64,000 nt of DNA from Escherichia phage vB_EcoA_4HA11. The notes beneath the pieces were generated by a model. That model searched no databases. It worked only from the letters and a program-made list of their open reading frames with translations, and had not been told where the DNA came from. The position numbers were made by a program, and so were the translations under genes. The stretch is taken from the sequence record MN445184; one strand, given 5' to 3'. Below, piece after piece: positions 2,789 through 63,533 of the stretch (the stretch's first letter is position 1; each line of letters starts with the position of its first letter).

Positions 2789-4354
2789 ATGAACAAGATT
2801 GACGAAAAGATCCTGAAATATTTGAAGGAAGGCAAAAGCCAGAGCGCAATTGCTACTCTGTTGGGCATACCCCGCTCGACTGTACAACGTGTTTCCGACA
2901 CGGAACTCGGTGTTGACCCTACTTCGCTGAAATCTCTGACAACAGATCAGATCGCCAATATCCAAAGGGATTCGGCGGTAGGTAATGTCAGCAATGCATT
3001 CTTGGCCAAGGTGTACGGTGTGTCCACCAAGACCATTGCTCGCGCTCTGTTGGTCCGGATTACCGAGGAGGAAAACAAGGTAACTGTGATCTCTCCTATC
3101 AAGCCGGAAGAGCAGGAAGTATTCGAGGTCCAACCGGGCGGCACGGCCAAAGACAAAGATGACACAGAATGGTATGTTGGGGCATATCTGCCGAACCACA
3201 ACAAGTATCTGTGTCTCACCAATGACGGCAATTTCAAAGGGGCTCTCTTTGAAAAATCCGAACTGGCTCCTGTGGAAGGTAATAGTCGCGCTTTCGGTGT
3301 TGAAGCTGTCGGTAAGATGGCAGAAATTTCTGTGGCGCTGACAGAAGGCTCTGACAAAGTTCCGAGCAACGTTGAAATCAGCGTTGTGGTTGACGGGGAA
3401 ACCTATCCTATCCGTGGATCCTTGGATGCCCGTCGCCGTGTTGGTTACTTCGATGCCATCCTCGGTCGCACTCTTCGCCTGGCTCTGTCTTCTGTGGAAT
3501 TCGCTGTTGTTATCAAAGAAGTTGAAGAAGCGGCTGATAACAAGAAAACCAAACAGGACTTCGGGGCGAAAGACCTGGACGTGTTCCTGAACGAACACCA
3601 GATCCTGATTCTGCCTGACAGCGTTGTTATCGCGATTGACGGCAAGCCGGAAACGATCACCACTTCACACCCGGCCTATGACCGCATCGTACAGGCGATC
3701 AAAGACAAAGACGTGAAGCTGGCATACTCGCTGATGCGTCCTCGTGAAGCCATCGCGAAGTACGCTGCTGGTCTGGTAGACGTGTCTGACAACCGTGTCC
3801 GCTGGTCCGGTCATGACATCACAGGCACATCCATCGCCAAGCGTGTACTGGCGCTGATGCTGAAGGGTGACTTCCACAACCTGGACCGCATGGCGAAGTT
3901 TATGGACAAAATGTTCCAGAACCCGTCAGCTGCTCTGGTTCAGTCTGGGCGCATCTATGAGTTCATGGCGTACTCCGACATCGAAATTGACGACGATGGT
4001 GACATCATCCTCTACAAATCGGTGCGCGGCAACTACATGGACAAGCACAGCAACACGATCAGCAACGCCCCAGGCACTATCGTGCGGATGGCTCGCTCAT
4101 TCGTGAACGACAACAACTCCGACCTGTGTTCATACGGTCTGCATGTGTGCTCCCTGGCCTACCTGAAGGAGTGTTTCGGTTCTGTGGGACAACGTGTCGT
4201 TCGCTGTAAGCTGAACCCGCGTGACATCGTGTCGGTCACCGATGATTTTGGTTCAAGCAAAATCCGCTGCTGTGAATACCTGGTGTTGGATGACTACACT
4301 GCTGAGTACAACCGCCAGCACAAGTCTATTGACGTGACAGGTCTGTACAAGTAA
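2789..4354 (+). CDS. rIIB: rIIB-like protein with N-terminal helix-turn-helix
   Basis: ATG at 2789 in frame of ORF 2702..4354 just after the rIIA-like stop; N-terminal HTH-like segments (KSQSAIATLLGIPRSTVQRV); C-terminal block SYGLHVCSLAYLKECFGS..RVVRCKLNPRDIVSV resembles recalled T4 rIIB C-terminus. Confidence 0.5.
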   Translation: MNKIDEKILKYLKEGKSQSAIATLLGIPRSTVQRVSDTELGVDPTSLKSLTTDQIANIQRDSAVGNVSNAFLAKVYGVSTKTIARALLVRITEEENKVTVISPIKPEEQEVFEVQPGGTAKDKDDTEWYVGAYLPNHNKYLCLTNDGNFKGALFEKSELAPVEGNSRAFGVEAVGKMAEISVALTEGSDKVPSNVEISVVVDGETYPIRGSLDARRRVGYFDAILGRTLRLALSSVEFAVVIKEVEEAADNKKTKQDFGAKDLDVFLNEHQILILPDSVVIAIDGKPETITTSHPAYDRIVQAIKDKDVKLAYSLMRPREAIAKYAAGLVDVSDNRVRWSGHDITGTSIAKRVLALMLKGDFHNLDRMAKFMDKMFQNPSAALVQSGRIYEFMAYSDIEIDDDGDIILYKSVRGNYMDKHSNTISNAPGTIVRMARSFVNDNNSDLCSYGLHVCSLAYLKECFGSVGQRVVRCKLNPRDIVSVTDDFGSSKIRCCEYLVLDDYTAEYNRQHKSIDVTGLYK

Positions 4355-4372
4355 CTAAACCCCATCCATCAA

Positions 4373-4392
4373 GGAGGCTCCGGCCTCCTTTC
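4373..4392 (+). terminator. hairpin GGAGGCTCCGGCCTCC followed by TTTCAGTT; probable intrinsic terminator after rIIB-like gene
   Basis: perfect inverted repeat immediately 3' of stop at 4354. Confidence 0.55.
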
Positions 4393-4576
4393 AGTTCGAA
4401 GGCGAGACCAGGGAATACTCCCACAAGAACTTTCCTCCCCGTGAAGTTTATGACCAACAGTTCGTGAAATTGTTCTGTCGCTGTGGTGGGTGTGATTTCA
4501 CGGATGATGGTTACGCAATGCGTATACTGCTGCAATTGCTGTGGTAAATACGTAACAGTCTATAGGAGAACCGAAC

Positions 4577-5002
4577 ATGGCGAAGAAACCTGAAACCAAG
4601 AAAGTTGAAATTAAAACCGAAGCCCCAGTCGATGACATCCAGGCGAAGGAGGAAGGTGTGTTGCCTACCTACCTACAACGCGCCATCGATAACATCCCTC
4701 CAGGGGGAGACGGAGGCGTCGTCTACGCTGGCGGGTACGGTTGGGTGTGTGAATACCAAGACGGCACGAAGGAACTCCTCCAGGAGCTTCCAGGGCTGGC
4801 TGCGACCCTCAAGCGTTATGGTCGCGACAAGTTCGGCAAGCCGTTTGAAACCGGGGCTGTGATTGAAACCAACATCACAGTCGAGACTCTGAACCTGCTG
4901 GGTGAAGATGATCTCAAGTTGTTGGCTGCGCCGCTGGGTATCACAGAAGAAGATCGCATTCAGCTGATTGCGAAGCTGATCGAAAAATTGCAGATTAAAT
5001 AA
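4577..5002 (+). CDS. hypothetical protein
   Basis: 141-aa ORF with upstream TAGGAGAA RBS. Confidence 0.5.
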   Translation: MAKKPETKKVEIKTEAPVDDIQAKEEGVLPTYLQRAIDNIPPGGDGGVVYAGGYGWVCEYQDGTKELLQELPGLAATLKRYGRDKFGKPFETGAVIETNITVETLNLLGEDDLKLLAAPLGITEEDRIQLIAKLIEKLQIK

Positions 5003-5032
5003 GCCGATGTACAACAGCTGAACTTATTCAAT

Positions 5033-5425
5033 ATGCCTATCGTTGACGAAAGCAACTTTATGTATTATGCACTGAGGCATTATATTGTAGATTCTGTCTC
5101 GTGGGATGAACTGCTGGTAGACATTCAGCGGATTTCGCTAATTAATCAATCATTGAAGAGATTTGTCCCTGGTAAGAGTCCTCGGTTGATTCTCAATCAA
5201 TTGATTACTGTCTTCAATACGTTCGAAACAGAGGCCGCTTGCCGTATGCTCGTTTTGAAGGTGGATAAGCCCCAGTTGCCACGCCTCAAGGCTGCTTTGT
5301 TGACATTAGGCGTATGGCGCGATGATTTATGTTCCGGTTCATACGAACCAGATAATGAGCTGATGATGGCTCTGAACAACGATTTGGATGAGTGGAGGAA
5401 ACCATGCCAACGATCACTGTATTAG
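5033..5425 (+). CDS. hypothetical protein
   Basis: 130-aa ORF in same-strand gene train. Confidence 0.45.
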   Translation: MPIVDESNFMYYALRHYIVDSVSWDELLVDIQRISLINQSLKRFVPGKSPRLILNQLITVFNTFETEAACRMLVLKVDKPQLPRLKAALLTLGVWRDDLCSGSYEPDNELMMALNNDLDEWRKPCQRSLY

Positions 5426-6216
5426 TAGCACCGGAAGTTGTTCGCAACAAACCGGAAACTGAGCGTCTTCACACTGTAACAGGTACTGCTCGGGGTTGGG
5501 AAAAGACCAGTCTTAACCAAGACCCAGACGAGATCCTGACTGAGTGTAAAGGTCTGGATGCACTGCTGACCAAGAGCAATTTGCAGGCCGATGGCGTCAC
5601 CAAAGTGGATCCAACCAAGCCCGTTGGCTTCCAGCTGTCTTATGAAATCCACGACCCAAGCGCTGTGCTGACCACTGGCCTGACCATCACCCCTGAAACT
5701 GCTAATGGTGAAGTCGGTCAGGTTGTTGAACTGAAGGCGGTCGTCGCTCCGGAGAACGCGACCTACCAGGGTGTCAACTGGTACTCTGGCGATCTGACCA
5801 AAGCTGTGCACATCGGTGGTGGTAAATTCAAGCTGCTGGCGCCGGGTTCAGTGACTGTTTACGGTGTAACCATCGAAGGTGACCACACTGACTCTACCGT
5901 CATCACAGTGGCTGGCGCTCTGTCTCTGTCTACCGATCTGGCTGCTTCTCAGGATGTAACAACAGGTGAATCCGCAACCTTCACCATCGCTGCTACAGGC
6001 GGCACTACCCCATACAAACACACTTGGTACTTCTCTGATGTCCCTGGTGGTGAAGAAGGTGAGGTGATCGATGCTGGCACTAACCCCACTGCTGCAACTG
6101 CGAGCCTGGTTATCACTGCAGTTGCTGCCGAAAACGAGGGTGAGTACTGGTGTGTTGTTGAAGACGCTGACGGCCACTCTGTGACCTCTACTCGTTGCGA
6201 AATGGCTGCGGTCTAA
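5404..6216 (+). CDS. Ig-like domain protein (BIG2-like plus Ig-like repeat); possible Hoc-like capsid decoration or adhesin
   Basis: internal ATG at 5404 preceded by GGAGGA; translation shows bacterial Ig-like patterns (GEVGQVVELKAVVAPENATYQGVNWYSGD.., ..ENEGEYWCVVEDADG..). Confidence 0.5.
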   Translation: MPTITVLVAPEVVRNKPETERLHTVTGTARGWEKTSLNQDPDEILTECKGLDALLTKSNLQADGVTKVDPTKPVGFQLSYEIHDPSAVLTTGLTITPETANGEVGQVVELKAVVAPENATYQGVNWYSGDLTKAVHIGGGKFKLLAPGSVTVYGVTIEGDHTDSTVITVAGALSLSTDLAASQDVTTGESATFTIAATGGTTPYKHTWYFSDVPGGEEGEVIDAGTNPTAATASLVITAVAAENEGEYWCVVEDADGHSVTSTRCEMAAV

Positions 6217-6218
6217 TC

Positions 6219-6449
6219 ATGAAGGGCTTCCAGGACTTCCTTGAAGACTCGGCAGCCCCTGGAACCACGACCGCCGATGTGGGGAAACCCGAAGGCGGTA
6301 TGGTGAAAGAGCCTGTCAAGAAGCCCAAGGATCTTGAGGAAGAACAAGAGCAGACCTCCTTCCAAAAGATCTTTGGAAACATCTTCAAAGACCTCGACCT
6401 GAAGAATGCAAGAAAGTGGAACTTCAGGACAGGCAAATATGAAGACTAA
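6219..6449 (+). CDS. small protein with T4 internal-protein-like capsid-targeting N-terminus (MKGFQDFLE)
   Basis: ATG at 6219 in frame of ORF 6195..6449; N-terminus MKGFQDFLEDSA resembles T4 IP capsid-targeting sequence MKTYQEFIAE; lysine/acidic-rich body. Confidence 0.45.
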   Translation: MKGFQDFLEDSAAPGTTTADVGKPEGGMVKEPVKKPKDLEEEQEQTSFQKIFGNIFKDLDLKNARKWNFRTGKYED

Positions 6450-6537: not shown

Positions 6538-7038
6538 ATGAAATCCATGGTCAAACGTAAAGTCGAAATCTCCCTGACTGCCCATATTGAAATGGTCCAA
6601 CAACTTATCCTGGATGCGTATGAAATCCAGAAAGATCGCCAATCGAGGGGAGGTGTGACGGACCCCACCTGTCCTGGAAACATACTGTACTATCGCATGC
6701 TGCGCCAGACTGGGCACACCGCCGCGCTGAAGAAGATTCTGTCCTATGATTTCCAGACAGAGAACAACCTCAACATCATGGGTGTCTTCCATAGCGTTAG
6801 TGAACGCGATTCTTTCTTCCGCTCCCGAGCAGGCGCGGATGTATCATTGCCCGATGTAGACAAGAAACAGCACACGACAACCATCTCCCATTACATGGGC
6901 ACGGGCATCGATAAAGCAAATATCATCGTGTTCTCTGATACGTTGCATGACCCCAAGCGCCTTGCATCTGCGCATGAAATGCTGCGGGAAGGTCGCAGCG
7001 CCCTCACTAATTTGACTTTAGTAGTGTTTCTGGGCTAG
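6538..7038 (+). CDS. hypothetical protein
   Basis: 166-aa ORF. Confidence 0.5.
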   Translation: MKSMVKRKVEISLTAHIEMVQQLILDAYEIQKDRQSRGGVTDPTCPGNILYYRMLRQTGHTAALKKILSYDFQTENNLNIMGVFHSVSERDSFFRSRAGADVSLPDVDKKQHTTTISHYMGTGIDKANIIVFSDTLHDPKRLASAHEMLREGRSALTNLTLVVFLG

Positions 7039-7083
7039 ATAGTTACAGGGGAGGAAACTCCCCGCTTCAACCAGGAGGCGCAT

Positions 7084-7281
7084 ATGTTCAGGTTCAAGAT
7101 CTACAAAGAACGAAACTCGTTCAAATTCGGTGTCGTCGCTGGGGTGTGTTTCTTCCTGACGATCGAAAACGTGATCGGGCTGCTCACAATATCACAAATG
7201 CAGATAACCCGATTTGTCCTTGCTATCGTATTCGCCGCTATCGGCTTGGCCTGTAGTTATATGGGCTGCATGAAGAAGTAA
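7084..7281 (+). CDS. small membrane protein
   Basis: 65-aa ORF, two hydrophobic segments, AGGAGG RBS. Confidence 0.45.
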   Translation: MFRFKIYKERNSFKFGVVAGVCFFLTIENVIGLLTISQMQITRFVLAIVFAAIGLACSYMGCMKK

Positions 7282-7308
7282 TTTCACTACACACAGCAAT
7301 ACTTTGAT

Positions 7309-7812
7309 TTGAGAAACTACATCATGATGCTGTTAATGAACGTTCCACAGAACAAGATGACCCCTGCAACAGAGGGTAAGAATCACTTCAACATCTACAG
7401 CCGGAGCCAGACGGAACTCGGGCGCTTCCTCTCGCATTTTACCCATCATCCAATGACTACCCATGAACATGGTGTGTTTAACTCCATGGAGGGGTACTGG
7501 TATTGGCTGAAGTATAGGGATGACAACCTGCGCCTGCTCGACGGTTATGAGGCCAAGCAATATGGACAGAGGTTGGCGGCCACTCGCATCGCTGTCATTG
7601 ATCCATCATCCGAAGAATTCAAGCGCGATATCCTATTTGCAACTAGCATGAAACTCCAGACAATGCCTGAACGTCTGAAGATCAGATTGGCTTACAGTCG
7701 CCTACCCCTGATCCATGCATATGTTCAGAACGGGAAATACAGTTTTCAAAACTCTATGGACTATATCATTGCCCACATTAATCGTCTCCGCATACAAGGA
7801 ACTTTGAAATGA
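7309..7812 (+). CDS. hypothetical protein
   Basis: 167-aa ORF; start may be a few codons downstream. Confidence 0.45.
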   Translation: MRNYIMMLLMNVPQNKMTPATEGKNHFNIYSRSQTELGRFLSHFTHHPMTTHEHGVFNSMEGYWYWLKYRDDNLRLLDGYEAKQYGQRLAATRIAVIDPSSEEFKRDILFATSMKLQTMPERLKIRLAYSRLPLIHAYVQNGKYSFQNSMDYIIAHINRLRIQGTLK

Positions 7813-15772: not shown

Positions 15773-16332
15773 TGGCCGGAATTGTAAAGTACCTGGGTGA
15801 CACCCACCTCGGACACAAGAAGATCTTCAAGCCCCGTGGGTTCGACACACAGGAAGCCCACGACGCTGCGGTCATCGACAGTATCTTTCAGGGGCTGAAG
15901 TCTCGAGACGTCCTTGAACTGGCTGGGGACATCTGCTTCATCGGGGCTGAGGGGTTCATTCGCCTGATGCGGGAGGGTGCCAAGCGAAACATTGATGAGT
16001 TTAAGCGACGCCCCGTTCCCGATGACTGGCGTCCGAACTTTATCATCAAGGTGGCACAAGGCAACCATGACAGCTTTAAGATGTTGTTGTCTCTGTATCT
16101 GGACGGCTGGATTAGCTCCTTCGGCGCTATGTATGAACGTGACACGCCTGTTGGCCGTGTGTTGACAACACATGTTCCTTATCAATTAGACCGTTGGGCG
16201 TATAATATCCATGGTCATCTTCACGAAAATATTCGCGAAGAGCGCGAATACCTGAACTGCAGTTGGGAACAATTCAAGCGTCCTGTAACCCTGGCTGAGT
16301 TATTATACACAAATTTAGGAATTGTGTTATGA
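15772..16332 (+). CDS. calcineurin-like metallophosphoesterase
   Basis: GDTHLG, GNHD and HGHLH motifs; ATG 15772 after GAGGAA. Confidence 0.6.
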
Positions 16333-16661
16333 GAATATTCTTTCCTGGTCAGAAAGTACCCGAAGAAATACAAAAGGTCGAGTTATTTGGTTATAAAAGC
16401 GGTGATCCGTTCCTGCGATTTTCTTCACCATGTATCGTGAAGCGCAATCATGAAGGGCATTATGTGCGCCCAATCATCCTCATGGGTTCTGTCATGACGC
16501 TGAGAGCCAAAACAGACTCCGTCGTTATTACCGGAAGTCCCAACATACCCAATGGAAAGACTACGCTAAATTGCAAGCCCATCCTGTCGTCTTGGGTGTT
16601 AATTGGATTTCTGTCTATAATCTTGTTTTATCGTTACCTTACTGACTTGGGGATCTTATGA
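16329..16661 (+). CDS. hypothetical protein with C-terminal membrane anchor
   Basis: 110-aa ORF. Confidence 0.4.
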
Positions 16662-35040: not shown

Positions 35041-35621
35041 TTCCGATCCCTATAAAATTTGACGAATGGTTGCCAACCTTCAAATGGGTTAACAAATTCA
35101 TAATCAACTTCCATCTTATCAATGAAAGCCTCAATGTCATCCTCTATGATACCACCGCGATCCGCCTTTGAAATGCGGGTGATGGGACATTTAGTGCTCA
35201 GCGCCCATTCATATTCCTGAGGGGTGCGCAAATCACTCACGATATAATGAACGTGTGGGTTCTGCTCCACCAAAGGAAGTTGATATCGTTTAAAGAATGA
35301 CAGGAACAGGTCTGGTTGTACATAACGCAAGCCCGTATCGCTGCCCAGATGAAGCCAGATCTGCCGTGGGGTTAAGCCCTTGGGGTTATCAGGGTGTACG
35401 AATGGAACGTCCTTCACAGCATCCTCCACCTCCGCTGGTAGCCATGGGTAGATGAAATTGGCGACACGTCGCAGTTCATCTGAGAAAGACAGACGACGAA
35501 TATCCTTATCACCCTGAATATGATGAAAACTGATCAGGGACTCCAAACAGAAGTCCTTGCCGGAGCGCTTGCGCCCCGTGAAGAATTCAAGGTTCTGGTA
35601 CATCATTCGCCATACCCCCAC
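35037..35621 (-). CDS. deoxynucleoside monophosphate kinase (gp1-like)
   Basis: N-terminal GRKRSGKD matches T4 gp1 GVKRSGKD P-loop. Confidence 0.6.
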   Translation of the reverse strand: MGVWRMMYQNLEFFTGRKRSGKDFCLESLISFHHIQGDKDIRRLSFSDELRRVANFIYPWLPAEVEDAVKDVPFVHPDNPKGLTPRQIWLHLGSDTGLRYVQPDLFLSFFKRYQLPLVEQNPHVHYIVSDLRTPQEYEWALSTKCPITRISKADRGGIIEDDIEAFIDKMEVDYEFVNPFEGWQPFVKFYRDRK

Positions 35622-36646
35622 ATAAATTTCTGATCAACAGGGGAATGCAGTAATGCAGTACGAAGACCGTCATCAGCGATACGGCGTTTGTCAATTTTGG
35701 TATCATTGAGGCGACACCACAGGCAATATGACATATCCATCATCAATCCCGTGTCTGCTTGATATCCTTTCAGATGTTCTCTGATTTTACCAAAATCACT
35801 GCCGATGTCACAGTGATGTAACACGCCGAGGAATAGATTACAAATATCTTTTTGCGACTTCACTTTTTCTGAAGAGAATTCCAGCAAAGAATTGTACATC
35901 CCAGAAGAAGTTTTGGTCTTCTTAGTGATACCCCCGAGTTGTTTCCGACTAACTTCATTGTTGTAATAATGAAGATTGTTAGAAAACAGTTTGTAATACC
36001 CAACTTCGACATTCAGCACTTTCGCCAGAACTTCTTGCAGGATAGAGAATTCAATGAAATTGATTGAACTCATGCCCCACAAGACATCTTGGCTGCGGTT
36101 AATGACAGTGATATTCAATCGCCCTTCTGTTATACTGAACAATAGAGCAAGATTACAGATCATGTCCTTGGTCTTGGCTTCTCCAGTTTCACTATGGGCG
36201 GCCAAACCTTCATCTGAGTCCAGCGCCGGATCATAGATGGTGAGATACGCCTGACGGGTGTTGGGATTATTACGCAGACGGCTGATGACACTATCCAACT
36301 GGCCATTATTGTACAGACGTGGGCCATACGCGCCTCGCCAGGTTACACCGTCATCAGAGAAGTTGGCGGCGCGGGGTAAGACTTTCGAAAGGAAACGGAT
36401 ATCATTACGTCCGGACAACACCCAGAATGTCTCACCGATGGCAGCAATTGCCGACGAGTTGCGGCCTTCAACGGAAAGCCAACGGTCACGTGGATCTGAT
36501 ACTGTAATTGTTACACCATCAATGAAACGAGTGCCGTCAGTGTTAATCTCTGCGTTGCCAGGATCTGACTCAATGCCGTGTTCACGGATGGCCAACACAG
36601 CCTTCTTCAGCATATCATTATTGTTTAAAGCAAAAATTTCCATCAA
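35603..36646 (-). CDS. thymidylate synthase-fold deoxypyrimidylate hydroxymethylase (gp42-like, unusually long)
   Basis: 347 aa; NRSQDVLWGMSSINFIEF matches TS-family block QRSxDxxLGxPFNIASY; candidate catalytic Cys in DMICNLA; no LPPCH motif; YLTIYDP resembles gp42 IMIYTRP. Confidence 0.6.
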   Translation of the reverse strand: MMEIFALNNNDMLKKAVLAIREHGIESDPGNAEINTDGTRFIDGVTITVSDPRDRWLSVEGRNSSAIAAIGETFWVLSGRNDIRFLSKVLPRAANFSDDGVTWRGAYGPRLYNNGQLDSVISRLRNNPNTRQAYLTIYDPALDSDEGLAAHSETGEAKTKDMICNLALLFSITEGRLNITVINRSQDVLWGMSSINFIEFSILQEVLAKVLNVEVGYYKLFSNNLHYYNNEVSRKQLGGITKKTKTSSGMYNSLLEFSSEKVKSQKDICNLFLGVLHHCDIGSDFGKIREHLKGYQADTGLMMDMSYCLWCRLNDTKIDKRRIADDGLRTALLHSPVDQKFMWGYGE

Positions 36647-37317
36647 TCAATACTCCCAAAATCACGATTGAGAAACGCAAAAACAGCCTGCTCTATAGTC
36701 AGGCCATTGGACTTCATCATACCTGCGGGAACGGTAGGGAACAAGCCTTTATGCCGTTGGCGGTGGTCATGAACTCTCTCCCACTTTTCGACAACCAGGC
36801 TTTCATTGAAGTCTGCGCCGCCGTTGCGTGATTTCACACGGGAAACACAGGTTTCAAGCGGGGTGTCCATGAAGAGCACGACTAATTCGCGCGGTGGGCG
36901 CGTCAGGCGGGGAATCCATGAGCTGAGCAAAGTTGAAGGGATGATTCCTTCAAACAACACGTCATATTTCAGATATTCCGGCTGATCAGCAATGGACAAG
37001 GCGAACAACATCTGCTCGGTATCTTTCAGGGAATCAACACCTTTAGACTTAGACTTGTCATATTTACCAATACAGATAATGTTATAGGAAGGGCAAACTG
37101 TGAGCATGATCTTGCCATTGTAGGTCACGACATACGCCTGAGGATCATTCTCCGCCAGATAGGAAGGGACAGTGGACTTGCCGCTACCGTTGGAGCCTTT
37201 AACGTAATACAACTCTCCTCGTGCCGGATATTCCCCTTCGACAGCAGGTGGTTTTACAAATAGATGTACGGGGCGCTTCAACAACCCTTTGAGCGAATAC
37301 GACATGGTGTGCTCCAA
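36643..37317 (-). CDS. P-loop kinase (candidate 5-hydroxymethyl-pyrimidine DNA kinase or extra nucleotide kinase)
   Basis: 224 aa; Walker A GSNGSGKST; translationally coupled to hydroxymethylase gene. Confidence 0.55.
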   Translation of the reverse strand: MEHTMSYSLKGLLKRPVHLFVKPPAVEGEYPARGELYYVKGSNGSGKSTVPSYLAENDPQAYVVTYNGKIMLTVCPSYNIICIGKYDKSKSKGVDSLKDTEQMLFALSIADQPEYLKYDVLFEGIIPSTLLSSWIPRLTRPPRELVVLFMDTPLETCVSRVKSRNGGADFNESLVVEKWERVHDHRQRHKGLFPTVPAGMMKSNGLTIEQAVFAFLNRDFGSID

Positions 37318-37377
37318 TAAACAAAAGGAGCTGCTATTATAGCAGCCCCTTCATCTATTGAATGCTTCTGAATTAAA

Positions 37378-38337
37378 TTACGCAGCAGCTTTCGCTTCGG
37401 CCAACGCCTGTGGCAACCATTCATTGATTGCTTTCACCAGAGATTCGGCATCAGTTTCTTTGATTTTCTGGCGTTTGGTGAATGATTTACCATTCACATA
37501 CAGACTGAACCCCCAGCCGCCGGAAACGATCGGCGCCAGATCAACATAAGTATTGGTGCGGGCGTGTGGATTGGCTTCATCTGCCAGTTCGGTAACAGGG
37601 AACTGGAACCAGCGCATATCCGGATTCACATAGCTCAAATAAACCCCAGGCACAACCCCCGATTCAACCGCAGCCAGGATAGGACCATAATTGGATGCGC
37701 GAGCCGCTTCAACCATTTCTTCACGCTTGTTATGACGACGCTTGCGTTCTTCGGTAGAAGATGCAGGGCGCATTTCAGAAGATTTCTTGGCCAGAACCGC
37801 CTTCGCGTTCGCTAAAGCCTGATCATCCTTCGGATTTTCAACGTCGGCGATTGCTTCAGCAACGGTTGTGCCCAGCATACGACGGCGAACTTCTTCAGCA
37901 CGGGCTTGCGCTTCTTCGTCAAGAACTTCTTCGCCTTCAACTACCAGGGAAATGGAACCGTCTTTGTTGACTTCAAGAGAACCGTCTTCGACGGTCTGGG
38001 AATTTTGATCACCGACAGGTTGCCCAACCGTTTCTTCGGCGTCAATCACCGGATTTGATTCACCGTCGCCCTGTTTAACCCCCGCATCTTCGGTCGGTTT
38101 AACTTTTTCGGCTTCAGCGCGGTCAAGAGCTTCGAGAGTCTCTTCTTTCTCTTCCTGGCTCAGACCTTCAATGAGTTCAAAGCCGTTGGCTGACTGGAGG
38201 ACGCCTTCCATCATACGGCGTAACGTGACGTTGCCGATGATAAGGTCTGCACCTTTGATTTCTGCTTGAAGATCAGCAGCGGTTTTACCATCAATTTCAA
38301 ATTTCAGGCCGGACTCGATATGAAGAATATAGGACAT
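37378..38337 (-). CDS. acidic hypothetical protein
   Basis: 319 aa with long Glu/Asp-rich low-complexity region. Confidence 0.5.
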   Translation of the reverse strand: MSYILHIESGLKFEIDGKTAADLQAEIKGADLIIGNVTLRRMMEGVLQSANGFELIEGLSQEEKEETLEALDRAEAEKVKPTEDAGVKQGDGESNPVIDAEETVGQPVGDQNSQTVEDGSLEVNKDGSISLVVEGEEVLDEEAQARAEEVRRRMLGTTVAEAIADVENPKDDQALANAKAVLAKKSSEMRPASSTEERKRRHNKREEMVEAARASNYGPILAAVESGVVPGVYLSYVNPDMRWFQFPVTELADEANPHARTNTYVDLAPIVSGGWGFSLYVNGKSFTKRQKIKETDAESLVKAINEWLPQALAEAKAAA

Positions 38338-58155: not shown

Positions 58156-58509
58156 TTAGGACAATTGCTTCAGTTTGTAAATCGTTTGATAGCACAAAGT
58201 TTTGATTTCGTCAAGCGTGTTTTGTAAATGGCTATCACACTGATTGTAGATCCCATTAACGTCGATGACCACGCTGTTGATATACGATATCGGTTCAGGA
58301 TTGTATAATTTGATGTTCTCGAATCCTGGAATGTATATACCACCCGCACCAATATACGCTTCCGTAAAGGTGTCTAGCAAGTCCTCCAGTTCCCCGTAGA
58401 ACTCCCCGAGTGCCTTGTGCTTGGCATAGGACGTTGTAACGAAGTGGAGGGCATGAGAGTGGGCTATAGCAAGCAGTCCACGGTTGATGAATATACTCGC
58501 ATTGACCAT
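58156..58509 (-). CDS. hypothetical protein
   Basis: 117-aa ORF. Confidence 0.4.
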   Translation of the reverse strand: MVNASIFINRGLLAIAHSHALHFVTTSYAKHKALGEFYGELEDLLDTFTEAYIGAGGIYIPGFENIKLYNPEPISYINSVVIDVNGIYNQCDSHLQNTLDEIKTLCYQTIYKLKQLS

Positions 58510-58526
58510 GATATTTACCCCTAAAA

Positions 58527-58550
58527 AGAAAATCCCCCTGTATTTAGGGG
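58527..58550 (-). terminator. intrinsic terminator after internal-protein-like operon (ATCCCCC-loop-GGGGGAT + U-rich)
   Basis: hairpin just below stop at 58559. Confidence 0.5.
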
Positions 58551-58558
58551 GATTGTAA

Positions 58559-58801
58559 TCACGGCTTGACCAGAGTCATCTTGACGGTTTCACCCGTGTC
58601 GGTGTCTGTCAGGGTCATGATGTCTTGCGCGTTCACGGACTTCACTTTCCCCTGCCGCTTATCACCGTTGCGATTGTAGTAATCGATCAGCTCGCCTTTG
58701 GTTGGACGACCAACATCCGTGATGTCGTACATGCCCTGCTGCCCAAGGCGGCGATGGTCAACCTTTGCTTCCTTCAAGAGGAAGTCCTGGAATCCTTTCA
58801 T
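58559..58801 (-). CDS. internal-protein-like small protein with capsid-targeting-like N-terminus (MKGFQDFLLKE/A)
   Basis: 80 aa; N-terminus resembles T4 IP targeting sequence with L-x-E cleavage context; basic body. Confidence 0.5.
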   Translation of the reverse strand: MKGFQDFLLKEAKVDHRRLGQQGMYDITDVGRPTKGELIDYYNRNGDKRQGKVKSVNAQDIMTLTDTDTGETVKMTLVKP

Positions 58802-58810
58802 ACAACCTCC

Positions 58811-59380
58811 TTAGACAGGTTTAACGCCAATATATTTGGCAATGTCCGCAGCTAGGGTTTTCCCCTTACTGATGTCATGCTGTTTGCCAGCGACTGTGAC
58901 AATTACATATGGATCGTCTTCTCCGCCGAAGTCGATTGCGACAGGTTTTCCAATACCAGGAATACCGGAATATTCAAACTCTGTACGACCGCTTTTACGA
59001 GATTTGCCAACGCCCAGCGCTTTACCGATCATCTTATCCATGTTCGCCAATTCTTGGGCATAGGATTCTGTGACCTGACCTTTGCTGGCATCTTTCCCAA
59101 AGAAGAACTCAAAACCGTCATGAACGGCAACAACATCTTTGCCCACAGAAACCGCATGAACCTGGTCCGGTGTGAGTTTTACTTTGGTGGTGTTGCCGTT
59201 AGTCAATTCCAGATTATAGATGTCGGCCTGATTATCTGGAGTGATCTGGGTCACGGTGGCACCAGTACACCATTGGGTTCCGTCGGCCTGTTTGGTGATG
59301 GTTACACCTTTGCCTTGTATGCCGCCATGAGTTTGCGGTTGTTGAGCTTGTTCTTTAAAATATTCGATAAACGGTTTCAT
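58811..59380 (-). CDS. internal-protein-like protein with capsid-targeting-like N-terminus (MKPFIEYFKE/Q)
   Basis: 189 aa; same operon. Confidence 0.45.
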   Translation of the reverse strand: MKPFIEYFKEQAQQPQTHGGIQGKGVTITKQADGTQWCTGATVTQITPDNQADIYNLELTNGNTTKVKLTPDQVHAVSVGKDVVAVHDGFEFFFGKDASKGQVTESYAQELANMDKMIGKALGVGKSRKSGRTEFEYSGIPGIGKPVAIDFGGEDDPYVIVTVAGKQHDISKGKTLAADIAKYIGVKPV

Positions 59381-59431
59381 CGTGGATCTCCTAAGGATTT
59401 TGATGTATTTAGCCCCCGAAGGGGCTATGAC

Positions 59432-61819
59432 TTATTTCAGACTAATCTGAAGATTACCACCCAGTGATTGTTCATATTCACTGTATGCACTATCACCATT
59501 ACTCATAGCCCATTCGTCGGATTGGCGAGCGCGTTCAAGAGTCATGAGATTTGGCTCGGTAGGATTATAGCCTTTAGATTTCGCGTCGTTGTATACCGTT
59601 TGCAGGTATTGGTTGGCACGGTTGATCTGATCCTTGAATTCACGATATGCTCCTTCGGTCGTATTGCGACGGAAAGTGATATCCCAAGCAACATTCAGAA
59701 CTGTACCATTACTGGCTGTGTATACCTGCCAATCCAGATCTCGTCCATTAGGAGCGCTGTCACGAATGGATTCGGCATAGGTGGCCAGATCACCTGCATT
59801 CTTACCTCCAGCAGCCTGATCTTTAGCCCGAGCCAAAGCATCAATGACTGCCGTGCGGTTCCTGGACTGTGCCAAATCTTTGTCTTGGAACATAATCGCG
59901 CCAAATTTACTGACAGTGATGTCATTCAGGAACAGATTGTTAGGGTTATAGTTTGATGAACTGAGATGGCTCAGTTGCGAAGCCGCGTCTTTCAGGCGTC
60001 GAGAAATCTCATCCAATGCATCTTGCACTGATTTGACAGACAACGAAATATCATATCCATTGCTGTCTACCACATTTCGACCATTTTCAGTCAACATGGT
60101 GGTGATGTTGGCTTTATTTCGATCAAAATCGTAAGTTACGTTGGTAACGAATCTTGCGGCTTGCAACTTGCTACCAGCAGGGAACTGGAAATCCCACGCT
60201 ACAGAGAAGCCATGAACGGTTTCACCAAAAAATTTAGCGTTGCTTGGTACTTTGATGTTTGCAGTGATCACTGCATTTTCACTGGAATTGGTGTTGATTT
60301 CACCAAAGATAGTACGCTCGTCGGAAGATTGAACCAACAGAGTATCTTTTCCACGCCAATCATAGCGGACTTTGAATGTTGTACGAGGAAACTCTTTCAT
60401 CAGATCAAGTTTGACCGCCTTGCCCAAGGTAAACCGATTCAGCAGAGCGTCAGCGATCTTCAATGTGAAAGAACCACAATCAACGTAAGAATATCCCTGA
60501 GAACGGGAAATTTTTTGAATCGGATATGGGGCACCATTGATAGGAACCACACGGCATTCTACTTCTCCCGCAAATTGAGAATCGGCTGCACGGGAGATTG
60601 CGCCCACTATTTCATAAGCGGCGTTTTTCACGTCTCCTTCCAGCATAAGTTGGTAATGACCAGACAAATCTGATACTACTTCTACAGAAAGTTTTCCGTT
60701 GACAATTCCCCAGAAATAAACCTGAATGTCCAGACCACCCGAAGTACGATATTTGCCCGCGCCGATTCGTGTTAGTTTTTCACCTGCATACATACCGACC
60801 TGTTGTGGAGCATATGTGTCTACAATCCCCAGAAGGCGAGCAATATAACCCTGATTTCGTAAGTCATCCACAGATCCTGTTTTTGGCAAAGTCTGCATGT
60901 CTATTTTTCCAGAATCTCCCGTCATCTCTTTCCAGAAGATGGACGACTGCTTGGTGAAATCATTCAGAATATTCACAGGGATCTGCGGTAATCCCAGTTG
61001 GCGTACAATAGCGTCTGGGGATTGAGCGCGGATCCGTTTCTCGTTCATGATACTACCAGCATACACACCAGGTTCATTCGCGTGAGGTGCGATATTGGCG
61101 GTAATAGTCCGCCCACGTTCTTTACCAGACCAGACCAGCATAGGCTGAGTATGATCAGCCTTGGTCAGAATCCAGCGAGAATCGGCATTTATGGCTTGGC
61201 TCAAATCATCCATGTCACCTTGTAGTGCGGCGTCACGAGCAGCCTGGTCAGGAACGTCGCCGACTTTGTCTGGGTCGTCCCAAGTCACGCCTTTCATTTT
61301 CGGACCATCGAATACCTGAGCAGGATCCTTACCTTTACGCACAACCCATACGAATGCACGATCAGGGATAGGGGTATACGTCAGGTCCATGACATTGAGC
61401 TTCTGCTTCAGGCCGGACTGACGGATGATCTTCGGCAGGAGGGTAACACCACGTTCCAATGCTTTCTTGGAGAAGTTAATTGCAAAGCCGTCAATGGTTT
61501 TCCCCAAAGGCGTCGCCATGAATTGCTTTGTTGCTTCGATCATGGATGCGATGACACGCATTGGGTTTTTGAAACGACCGATTGCGTCTGGATAGGTCGA
61601 ACCACGTTTCTGGCCTATGAAGACCTGACGAACGTTCTTGCCCAGCCCCTGCGGGGTATAAAATTGGATGCGGAATTCTTTTTCGTCTTCATCAACAAAT
61701 GTGAAGAAAATGTCACCAGCGTTCTTCTTACCGAATGTCAATTCATACGGGGATGAGTTAAACGCTTCGTCTAATTGTTTAGACTCTTCAAGAAAGTTCA
61801 AGAAAGATGGGATGGCCAT
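59432..61819 (-). CDS. large protein leading the internal-protein-like operon; possible packaged/injected protein
   Basis: 795 aa; N-terminus MAIPSFLNFLEE/S has a possible L-x-E site; no enzymatic motif recognised. Confidence 0.4.
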   Translation of the reverse strand: MAIPSFLNFLEESKQLDEAFNSSPYELTFGKKNAGDIFFTFVDEDEKEFRIQFYTPQGLGKNVRQVFIGQKRGSTYPDAIGRFKNPMRVIASMIEATKQFMATPLGKTIDGFAINFSKKALERGVTLLPKIIRQSGLKQKLNVMDLTYTPIPDRAFVWVVRKGKDPAQVFDGPKMKGVTWDDPDKVGDVPDQAARDAALQGDMDDLSQAINADSRWILTKADHTQPMLVWSGKERGRTITANIAPHANEPGVYAGSIMNEKRIRAQSPDAIVRQLGLPQIPVNILNDFTKQSSIFWKEMTGDSGKIDMQTLPKTGSVDDLRNQGYIARLLGIVDTYAPQQVGMYAGEKLTRIGAGKYRTSGGLDIQVYFWGIVNGKLSVEVVSDLSGHYQLMLEGDVKNAAYEIVGAISRAADSQFAGEVECRVVPINGAPYPIQKISRSQGYSYVDCGSFTLKIADALLNRFTLGKAVKLDLMKEFPRTTFKVRYDWRGKDTLLVQSSDERTIFGEINTNSSENAVITANIKVPSNAKFFGETVHGFSVAWDFQFPAGSKLQAARFVTNVTYDFDRNKANITTMLTENGRNVVDSNGYDISLSVKSVQDALDEISRRLKDAASQLSHLSSSNYNPNNLFLNDITVSKFGAIMFQDKDLAQSRNRTAVIDALARAKDQAAGGKNAGDLATYAESIRDSAPNGRDLDWQVYTASNGTVLNVAWDITFRRNTTEGAYREFKDQINRANQYLQTVYNDAKSKGYNPTEPNLMTLERARQSDEWAMSNGDSAYSEYEQSLGGNLQISLK

Positions 61820-61897
61820 TGTAATTCTCCTGATTATAAAATCGGTGCGGTTTCCCTTAATTAGCGAAAAGAAAGGGATGCTAACACCCCTTTATTC

Positions 61898-62277: not shown

Positions 62278-62916
62278 TTAAGGTGTTGGATTGACAACGG
62301 GAATATGGAACCTGATTCCAGAGACAATGTCCTTCAGCTGAGGCTTCCAGCCGTCCACCAGGCGGGACAACGCGTTAGAACCAGGATAGACAATAATGAT
62401 ATCGCTTCCGGTTACATTATGTTGAGGGAATTGTGACATGTATTGCTCCATCGTCACCCCTGGGTCTATCAACACAGGACCGACATCCGAAGATGCATAT
62501 GTTGCCCCCAAACCGTCGACGCCCCATGCTAGTATTCCATAATCAGGAATATTCGCTTCAGAAGTTATGGTGAATCCGAAGATACGATTCAGCGCAGAAA
62601 AATCATACACGCTGTGAGCACTGTCATATGTCAGATAACCCTTTGACAGCATATCGGCGAATATCGCGTCTGTGTCACCAGTTGCCGGAGTCGGTATGGT
62701 AAACAATAACTCACCAGCAGGAGGGGATGGATACGTGCCGAGTGCATAAAGGCACCAAGCGTCGATGCATTTCTTGATGAATGCTTCCGGCGCGACATAA
62801 TCCGCAAGGCGCATTGTACCGGAATATTCTGAAGTAATGATCCCTTCCTTCGCGCCCTGAATAGCCAGAAACACCATTATGTGTTCATATCCGGTCTGAG
62901 ATGGAGTGATATTCAT
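62278..62916 (-). CDS. hypothetical protein
   Basis: 212-aa ORF. Confidence 0.45.
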   Translation of the reverse strand: MNITPSQTGYEHIMVFLAIQGAKEGIITSEYSGTMRLADYVAPEAFIKKCIDAWCLYALGTYPSPPAGELLFTIPTPATGDTDAIFADMLSKGYLTYDSAHSVYDFSALNRIFGFTITSEANIPDYGILAWGVDGLGATYASSDVGPVLIDPGVTMEQYMSQFPQHNVTGSDIIIVYPGSNALSRLVDGWKPQLKDIVSGIRFHIPVVNPTP

Positions 62917-63533
62917 TATCTGGTCCTCTTGAGTTTCTCAATCGTGCGCTTATTCATGGCGATCACTCCTGGGTCGACCTTTGGGTTTATTGCCATGCTT
63001 TTGAAAGACACACATCGTTGAAGATATTTAGCCTTCTTCACGACGTCGGCTGCATAAGAATTGGATTTCTGGTTACGATTGAACCCAGCATTGTAAGAGG
63101 AAAGGGATTTGCGGATGTTTTGGTTGTGATATTCTAGCCAGAAATTCATTTCATCAAGGGCAGCATTGGCAGCATATTCTTGATTGACCAGTAATTTGAT
63201 CGCGACATTGGCGTAACACTTCTGTGTTTTGCATCCCTCCCGTTTCCCGACGGTTTGGACGCGATTTTGAAATGCCCCCATATTAGCCGATTTGAGGTTA
63301 TTCCGCATGGATACAACATCTTCTCCGGCGCGGCTTTCCCTCCATGATATTGCGGCGAGGGTGAAACCAAGGTCTTGTTGTTTTCCCACGTGATAGGCTG
63401 TGGCCATGGTTGAAAGTTGTTGATCAGAAAACTCATAATCACATTGGGTGGTACTTTGGGAAGCGTGCACACTCCCGCTGGCAATGGTAAAGGTCACGGA
63501 CAAGGCCATGGCCTTCAACGTTGTCATCGTCAT
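62916..63533 (-). CDS. secreted lytic transglycosylase (SLT-domain) protein with signal peptide
   Basis: N-terminal MTMTTLKAMALSVTFTIASGSVHA; SLT-like motifs RES, GAFQ, SYNAG. Confidence 0.5.
   Translation of the reverse strand: MTMTTLKAMALSVTFTIASGSVHASQSTTQCDYEFSDQQLSTMATAYHVGKQQDLGFTLAAISWRESRAGEDVVSMRNNLKSANMGAFQNRVQTVGKREGCKTQKCYANVAIKLLVNQEYAANAALDEMNFWLEYHNQNIRKSLSSYNAGFNRNQKSNSYAADVVKKAKYLQRCVSFKSMAINPKVDPGVIAMNKRTIEKLKRTR

Follow-up and report, generated by a model that had tools for sequence, protein, structure and literature searches.

The stretch of DNA analyzed here, hereafter termed the window, comprises 64,000 nucleotides (nt) from Escherichia phage vB_EcoA_4HA11 (sequence record MN445184), a Kuttervirus (Ackermannviridae, Vi1-like) with 98.8% identity to Escherichia phage EP75. 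Salmonella Kuttervirus phages (Det7, barely, ST-W77, and many more) are 96–98% identical to the region of interest, in which three adjacent genes on the minus strand encode proteins of 795 amino acids (aa; 88 kDa; 59432..61819), 189 aa (58811..59380), and 80 aa (58559..58801). An earlier interpretation made from the letters of the DNA alone (the sequence-only reading) had regarded these genes as an operon for injected anti-restriction factors with N-termini like those of the internal proteins (IPs) of phage T4. The open reading frames (ORFs) that it had proposed are present, and their translations agree with the N-termini it had quoted, namely MAIPSFLNFLEE for the 795-aa protein, MKPFIEYFKE for the 189-aa protein, and MKGFQDFLLKE for the 80-aa protein. 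The hairpin terminator placed 3' of the 80-aa gene was found as well (58531..58554, minus strand), as an intrinsic terminator-like hairpin with a 9-bp stem, AATCCCCCTAAATACAGGGGGATT, followed by a T-run, TTCTTTTT. The 795-aa protein is composed of a leader, an Alt-type N-terminal domain, a mosaic middle, and a C-terminal domain termed 'TFRRNT'; the 189-aa protein of a leader, module A, the junction VTE105, and module B; and the 80-aa protein of an 11-residue leader and module C. We found no Pfam family for any of the three proteins, and each of them belongs to a PHROG of no assigned function (phrog_3867 being the only family match of the 795-aa protein); searches of PDB sequences with all three recovered no functional family either. 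We consider it fairly probable that the products of the three genes are internal ('ejection') proteins of the capsid which follow, in an Ackermannviridae phage, the plan known from T4.

The leaders of the small proteins were compared with those of the IPs encoded in the T4 genome. IPII and IPIII start with MKTYQEFIAE↓A (the arrow marks a known or predicted cleavage position here and below), and IPI, which starts with MKTFKEF, is cleaved at ITE↓A, after which 76 residues remain, as known. The leader of the 189-aa protein is MKPFIEYFKE↓Q (10 residues), and that of the 80-aa protein is MKGFQDFLLKE↓A, which is kept across genera (MKGFKDFLAE↓AKV in the ortholog of Shigella phage Ag3). A leader of approximately 10 residues of the type M-K-x-[Y/F]-x-[E/D]-F fits the 189- and 80-aa proteins together with a 76-aa protein described below; the leader of the 795-aa protein differs and is longer. 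Among approximately 89 likely genes in the window, the leader motif was found only in these genes and the overlooked gene for the 76-aa protein. The degenerate DNA pattern ATGAARNNNTWYNNNGANTWY, which encodes M-K-x-[F/Y]-x-[D/E]-[F/Y], matched exactly the starts of ipI, ipII, and ipIII in the T4 loci; its only matches in seven Ackermannviridae loci were the starts of the 189- and/or 80-aa genes and of EP75 ORF182 (see below).

The protease-type sites proposed in the sequence-only reading were confirmed in that x-x-E is present with an invariant E, but in the 795-aa protein the invariant LDE↓A is a better candidate site than FLEE. At the predicted (L/I)-x-E-type site of the 189-aa leader, P3 is F (FKE) and the E is invariant. 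EP75, the closest complete genome, encodes a gp21-type head maturation (prohead) protease (ORF149) and a gp22-like core protein (ORF148; 6832–7668 of its locus L014), which starts with MKPELQNLFE↓G and resembles the cargo leaders in this respect. The core protein and the cargo may share their docking and cleavage logic. The EP75 major capsid protein bears LGE↓S at the site corresponding to propeptide removal in T4 gp23. Because the motif is specific, the leader and cleavage residues are conserved, and a gp21-type protease is present, we regard the resemblance of the leaders to those of the T4 IPs as going beyond chance. The likeness claimed earlier for the small proteins is borne out by the T4 genome, the specificity of the pattern, and its conservation.

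The 795-aa protein has a predicted 18-residue propeptide, MAIPSFLNFLEESKQLDE (61766..61819, minus strand), that ends in the protease-type site L-D-E↓A. Among 20 sequences of the family, E18, which abuts A19, is conserved in 100% and L16 in 95%, and the equivalents in distant genera are IAE↓A (Serratia 3M), LTE↓A (Vibrio K369), and ILE↓S (Aeromonas TSW001). The propeptide is followed by the putative Alt-type N-terminal (head-delivery) domain (residues 19–190; 61250..61765, minus strand), and the first 190 residues are >90% conserved within the family. An exhaustive profile search covering 1.84 billion representative proteins found residues ~5–200 to be an independent module occurring at the extreme N-terminus of >60 diverse proteins of 306–1409 aa. 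In all of these relatives, a variable leader precedes [L/I/F]-x-E↓[A/S]-F-[D/N]-S-x-P-Y, and two of them (P0214 and P0227) end in the ADP-ribosyltransferase (ART) exoenzyme domain PF03496, which is the architecture of Alt.

We compared a 54-sequence alignment of this N-domain with a 10-sequence alignment of the Alt N-domain from diverse T4-like phages by hhalign and obtained a match of 160 colinear columns (Prob 96.1%, E = 3.3e-9), in which LDE↓A aligns with the annotated processing site of T4 Alt, ITE↓L ('6 amino acids cleaved off'). The Alt homologs were gathered by tblastn; a word-indexed search with an Alt fragment gave 4 proteins. Weaker comparisons yielded E-values of 0.07 (pairwise BLASTP), 0.54 (profile against a single sequence), and 0.016 (shallow profile), and the match became significant only once the N-domain alignment was diversified with the matches of the exhaustive search. 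From these profiles, we regard residues 19–190 of the 795-aa protein as a homolog of the T4 Alt N-terminal domain, in contradiction to the earlier statement that none of the three proteins carries a recognizable domain. PF03496, which is present in T4 Alt, P0214, and P0227, was not detected by Pfam in the 795-aa protein. As far as its sequence tells, the protein bears the Alt delivery domain and is no Alt enzyme. In Ag3 (3501–5880 of its locus L005), the ortholog of the 795-aa protein is annotated as three ORFs of 163, 46, and 573 aa, which is either a frameshift/sequencing error or a genuine split.

In contrast to the N-domain, the middle of the 795-aa protein is mosaic, with identities of 48–100% between phages that share >95% identity elsewhere, and the lengths of the family members range from 689 to 964 aa. 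The AlphaFold models were moderate overall, with predicted local distance difference test (pLDDT) values of 71 and 69, and the conserved N-domain was modeled poorly. The confident part comprises residues 213–795 (pLDDT 70–90), a chain of small alpha+beta domains, for which no specific neighbor was found among PDB folds. The C-terminal 'TFRRNT' cargo domain (residues ~661–795; 59435..59839, minus strand) has no match in Pfam, and the exhaustive search recovered it as an independent module in approximately 50 small stand-alone proteins and at the C-termini of other proteins. A leader followed by [LIMF]-x-E was found at the start of 20 out of 50 TFRRNT proteins (40%), as opposed to 7 out of 127 background phage genes (5.5%; Fisher p = 8e-8); MKTFKEFVKE↓S, MKLTQITE↓MAAKK, and MRYSELTE↓A are among these leaders. 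A subgroup of the TFRRNT proteins (P0231, P0232, P0248, P0250, P0269, P0270, and P0289) shares the leader MKLxxLxE↓MAAKK and then carries a zinc-ribbon-like motif, CxxC...HYWYKGxWxC, constituting an uncharacterized leader-tagged family from metagenomes.

The small proteins proved to be modular in their own way. The AlphaFold2 model of the 189-aa protein comprises a leader helix followed by two domains; module A (residues 11–105) is beta-rich, and module B (residues 106–189) consists of a helix, five strands, and a helix. Only the columns M1, F4, E10, and E105 are invariant across the 21 members of the family, and the module swaps and fusions fall exactly at E105. In other phages, we found the leader and module A joined at VTE↓A to module C, the body of the 80-aa protein (residues 12–80), the leader combined with modules B and C, and the leader and module A continued by an unrelated tail; in yet another phage, the leader and module A terminate exactly at ...ATE. 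Module C is thus fused to A or B elsewhere. Altogether, the sequences present the 189- and 80-aa proteins as exchangeable modules linked at x-x-E sites. Basic isoelectric points of 9.7, 8.9, and 9.1 are predicted for the mature N-domain, module B, and module C, respectively. The structure prediction and fold comparison proposed as a check of the sequence-only reading yielded models, but the fold searches gave nothing specific; Pfam, PHROG, and fold searches detected no similarity of the three proteins in fold or sequence to IPI*, an inhibitor of a type IV (GmrSD) nuclease, or any other known anti-restriction protein.

Orthologs of all three proteins have been found in purified virions by published mass spectrometry (MS). 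In phage Sajous1, gp214, gp215, gp216, and gp217 correspond to the 795-aa protein, the 189-aa protein, the 80-aa protein, and the DUF5856 protein encoded next to them, respectively, and CsCl-purified virions gave 196, 32, 20, and 10 spectra for the four proteins in this order, gp214 being among the five most abundant virion proteins (PMC10892097). MS of LIMEstone1 virions revealed a cluster of 'unknown structural proteins', ORF78–85 (PMC3296691), to which the annotation of phage barely ties the homologs of the 189-aa, DUF5856, and DUF7270 proteins; ORF80 is the ortholog of the 189-aa protein and ORF78 that of the DUF5856 protein. LIMEstone1 ORF81 and ORF82 (40.9 and 18.8 kDa, the former with 23 peptides; PMC3296691) are most likely a split form of the large protein, as judged from size and gene order only. 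Neither the paper on CBA120 nor the 2024 review of Ackermannviridae mentions internal or injected proteins, and the S117 tailocin paper contains no proteomics separating head from tail proteins. The packaging of the orthologs into virions is documented, and for the proteins of the window we strongly infer location in the head, proteolytic maturation, and ejection. The RefSeq record of EP75 lacks an annotation for the 80-aa gene (37339–37581 of its locus L002), whose Sajous1 ortholog was detected by MS.

Leader-tagged genes are not confined to the three genes described above. The fourth such gene in the window (6219..6449, plus strand; phrog_4805) encodes a protein of 76 aa that starts with MKGFQDFLE↓DSAAPG... 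and has a low-complexity, charged body. It starts two bases after the stop of an Ig-domain (Hoc-like) gene (5404–6216) and is conserved in 279 Ackermannviridae records. The copy in the window is 97% identical to the versions in Ag3 and a Dickeya phage and approximately 83% identical to most Kuttervirus copies, a pattern in the sequences that suggests lateral exchange; a spurious 98-aa ORF overlaps the gene on the opposite strand. Outside the window, EP75 ORF182 (16043–16492 of locus L013, minus strand) combines the leader MKTFLEFYRE↓S with an ART-PolyVal ADP-ribosyltransferase (PF18760; 42.3 bits, cut-off 31.2). The neighboring ORF183 (15549–16007 of L013, minus strand) starts with MPISKLFE↓A and continues as an extremely acidic protein of 152 aa, possibly a DNA mimic. 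The Sajous1 orthologs of ORF182 and ORF183 are gp116 (1442–1891 of its locus L025) and gp115 (948–1406), for which 10 and 31 spectra, respectively, were obtained from virions (PMC10892097). Altogether, six proteins have such N-termini, five with an MKxF-type leader in addition to ORF183 with its shorter start, and one of the six (ORF182) is a recognizable host-modifying enzyme. All five leader-tagged proteins with orthologs in the proteomics tables are virion proteins, the 76-aa protein being outside the mapped set.

If the three proteins are indeed capsid-internal, as we favor, they would be made late in infection. The short amphipathic leader, MKxFx[D/E][F/Y]...E, would dock the 189-, 80-, and 76-aa proteins onto the prohead core, and the 795-aa protein would dock there via its leader and Alt-type N-terminal domain. 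The gp21-type prohead protease would then cut after (L/I/F/V)-x-E and remove leaders of 10–18 residues, and the 189-aa protein would probably be split at VTE105 into two products of ~9–10 kDa each. The mature proteins would remain in the DNA-filled head, exit with the DNA at infection, and act ahead of any phage gene expression. Since modules are shuffled at protease sites, the middle of the 795-aa protein is mosaic, and the TFRRNT end is widespread, a modular and fast-evolving cargo of this kind would fit a role in host conflict, either counter-defence or host takeover. Location in the head, cleavage, ejection, and function of the three proteins are thus inferred, and to assign them an anti-restriction function by analogy would be unsupported speculation.

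A serious rival, to which we nevertheless concede only a small share of the probability, shares the location inside the head with the reading favored above and takes the proteins to be structural, namely DNA-condensing, core-remnant, or ejection-conduit proteins with no specific counter-defence role, comparable to the bulk proteins IPII and IPIII of T4 or the ejection proteins of P22. The abundance of gp214 in virions, the basic nature of the mature N-domain and modules B and C, and the high conservation of the N-domain would all suit such proteins, as would the fact that the fold searches gave no enzyme or inhibitor fold. It is less easily reconciled with the divergence of the 795-aa cargo among otherwise nearly identical phages, with the ADP-ribosyltransferases that ride on the same delivery signals, or with the shuffling of modules between genes, which is typical of conflict rather than structural proteins. 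A chance resemblance of the N-termini, with the proteins contaminating the virion preparations, seems very improbable to us. In its favor, virion MS also recovered some non-structural proteins (ligase and rIIB) at low levels. Against it, the leader motif shows both specificity and conservation across genera, two independent phages yielded many peptides of the proteins, and the homology to the Alt N-domain is significant.

Existing annotations place the proteins in the tail instead. Databases label them 'tail completion protein' or 'tail fiber protein', and the authors of the Sajous1 study assigned gp214 to tail completion and envisaged a tail-borne ferritin/molybdate 'ferrojan horse', for which the Phyre2 confidences were 63% (gp215) and 27% (gp216) and no dependence on TonB or FeoB was found (PMC10892097). 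That gp214–217 are components of the tail or baseplate and serve as such an entry device seems improbable to us. The Phyre2 confidences are low, and the authors themselves saw no dependence on these uptake systems; the frataxin match is one of many equal-scoring generic alpha+beta sandwiches, and module B is basic, unlike frataxin. No tail families of Pfam or PHROG were detected among the three proteins, nor any homology to T4 gp3/gp15-type or fiber families, and the leaders, the LxE sites, and the homology to the Alt N-domain all indicate the head. We found no support for a tail location or metal binding of the three proteins. The 'ferrojan horse' was examined as a candidate in its own right and rejected, as neither a molybdate-binding MOP fold in the 189-aa protein nor a dependence on iron uptake was found.

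The T4 IPs are the closest model of the small proteins. Both sets have a leader of ~10 residues with the same pattern ending in an (L/I)-x-E site, are small (8–20 kDa) with unrelated, variable bodies, occur in virions, and are accompanied by gp21/gp22-type head genes. On the other hand, the phage studied here belongs to Ackermannviridae and T4 to Straboviridae, the bodies of the window proteins resemble IPI* in neither sequence nor fold, and the 189-aa protein looks like a precursor of two modules that contains an internal site, with modules being exchanged between genes. For the window proteins, as opposed to the T4 IPs, packaging, cleavage, and injection are predictions from sequence and from MS of the orthologs' virions. 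T4 Alt is an ADP-ribosyltransferase that targets RNA polymerase. It is a packaged and injected enzyme (PMC9026906; PMC5512222), and the 795-aa protein shares with it a homologous N-domain of ~170 residues directly behind a short propeptide with an x-x-E site, a large size (88 kDa vs. 76 kDa for Alt), and presence in virions; distant members of the N-domain family carry the PF03496 ART domain, as Alt does. The two proteins differ in that the C-terminal 600 residues of the 795-aa protein are a mosaic of alpha+beta domains ending in TFRRNT, and in that alt adjoins baseplate genes in T4 and the 795-aa gene does not.

The Dar proteins of phage P1 (DarA, DarB, Hdf, and Ddr), which protect against restriction, and the ejection proteins of phiKZ and SPN3US are proteolytically processed, head-internal sets co-packaged with DNA. 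Polyvalent proteins (Iyer et al. 2017; PMC5512222) also deliver modular effector domains with the invading DNA, and EP75 ORF182 is an ART-PolyVal domain behind a leader. In contrast to the single giant polypeptide of those systems, the proteins considered here are mostly small and single, each with its own leader, and none of the catalogued polyvalent domains was found in the three window proteins. In the survey of polyvalent proteins, the Alt N-domain is not treated as a portable module (PMC5512222). As for what was known before, the presence of the orthologs in virions had already been reported; the homology of the 795-aa protein to the Alt N-domain is new.

Phage proteins that are injected with the DNA precede phage gene expression and constitute a first line of counter-defence. 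To our knowledge, very few examples have been described other than in T4, P1, and a handful of jumbo phages. We tentatively entertain a wider possibility, less likely than the head-internal nature of the three proteins itself, that the IP-type leader and the Alt-type N-domain constitute a general modular head-delivery system with exchangeable cargo. Such a system would extend well past the T4-like phages, to Ackermannviridae, an Acinetobacter myovirus, and numerous uncultivated phages, and would draw on a pool comprising modules A, B, and C, TFRRNT, ART-PolyVal, and the acidic possible DNA mimic. At least some of its cargo would be new defence inhibitors, acting against host defences directed at hypermodified DNA derived from 5-hydroxymethyldeoxyuridine (5-hmdU). 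With the leader and the Alt-type domain recognized, abundant virion proteins in >300 phage genomes receive a corrected annotation, and the leader is a sequence tag with which candidate injected effectors can be found in metagenomes; if the delivery system exists, the tag could be mined for injected anti-defence proteins. Ackermannviridae phages are in wide use for biocontrol and diagnostics, and the capsid-targeting sequence of T4 has already been used to load foreign proteins into T4. The leader could possibly serve as a packaging tag for loading foreign proteins into Ackermannviridae phages.

Besides the coding sequences, an upstream motif recurs at the locus. CTAA(N)TA(A/C) occurs at 6 sites in the 64 kb, of which 5 are intergenic (61857, 59405, 58540, and 44120 on the minus strand; 19601 on the plus strand) and lie 14–38 nt upstream of starts on the same strand, often directly after a terminator hairpin. 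One copy, CTAATTAA (61857..61864, minus strand), is located 38 nt upstream of the 795-aa gene and just downstream of a terminator hairpin (61872–61893); another, CTAAATAC (59405..59412, minus strand), is 25 nt upstream of the 189-aa gene and overlaps a second hairpin (59410–59427). The DUF5856 gene downstream of the 80-aa gene also has its own copy, and the related motifs CTAAGTAA and CTAATTAC are found upstream of the EP75 capsid and portal genes. Judging from this distribution, CTAA(N)TA(A/C) looks like a candidate late-promoter element of Ackermannviridae, for which the CBA120 paper stated that the late promoter had not been identified; a scan for sigma-70 promoters was uninformative. The operon of the sequence-only reading holds insofar as the three genes are adjacent on the minus strand, but the second hairpin separates the 795- and 189-aa genes and several copies of the motif are present. 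Because of this internal hairpin and the separate motifs before the 795-aa, 189-aa, and DUF5856 genes, the three genes may not form one obligatory transcription unit.

The base-modification module noted in the same window was also confirmed, consisting of a 5-hmdU DNA kinase (36643–37305; PF18748, E = 1.6e-116) and a thymidylate-synthase-like gene (35603–36643). It provides context for the three genes and no evidence on their function. The neighboring DUF5856 gene (58156..58509, minus strand; PF19174, E = 1.4e-28) encodes a ferritin/Dps-like virion protein without a leader; it belongs to the virion-protein cluster but stands outside the leader set, and its product carries the database label 'starvation-inducible transcriptional regulator'. 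A DUF7270 gene lies on the other side of the three genes (62278–62916, minus strand), and its ortholog is present in LIMEstone1 virions; neither the DUF5856 nor the DUF7270 protein has a leader or an LxE N-terminus. The adjacent gene (62916–63533, minus strand) is widely annotated as 'RegB endoribonuclease', probably wrongly. In its product we instead found a match to the SLT lytic transglycosylase domain (PF01464) and an N-terminus resembling a signal peptide, and the Sajous1 ortholog, gp211, was detected in virions with 31 spectra.

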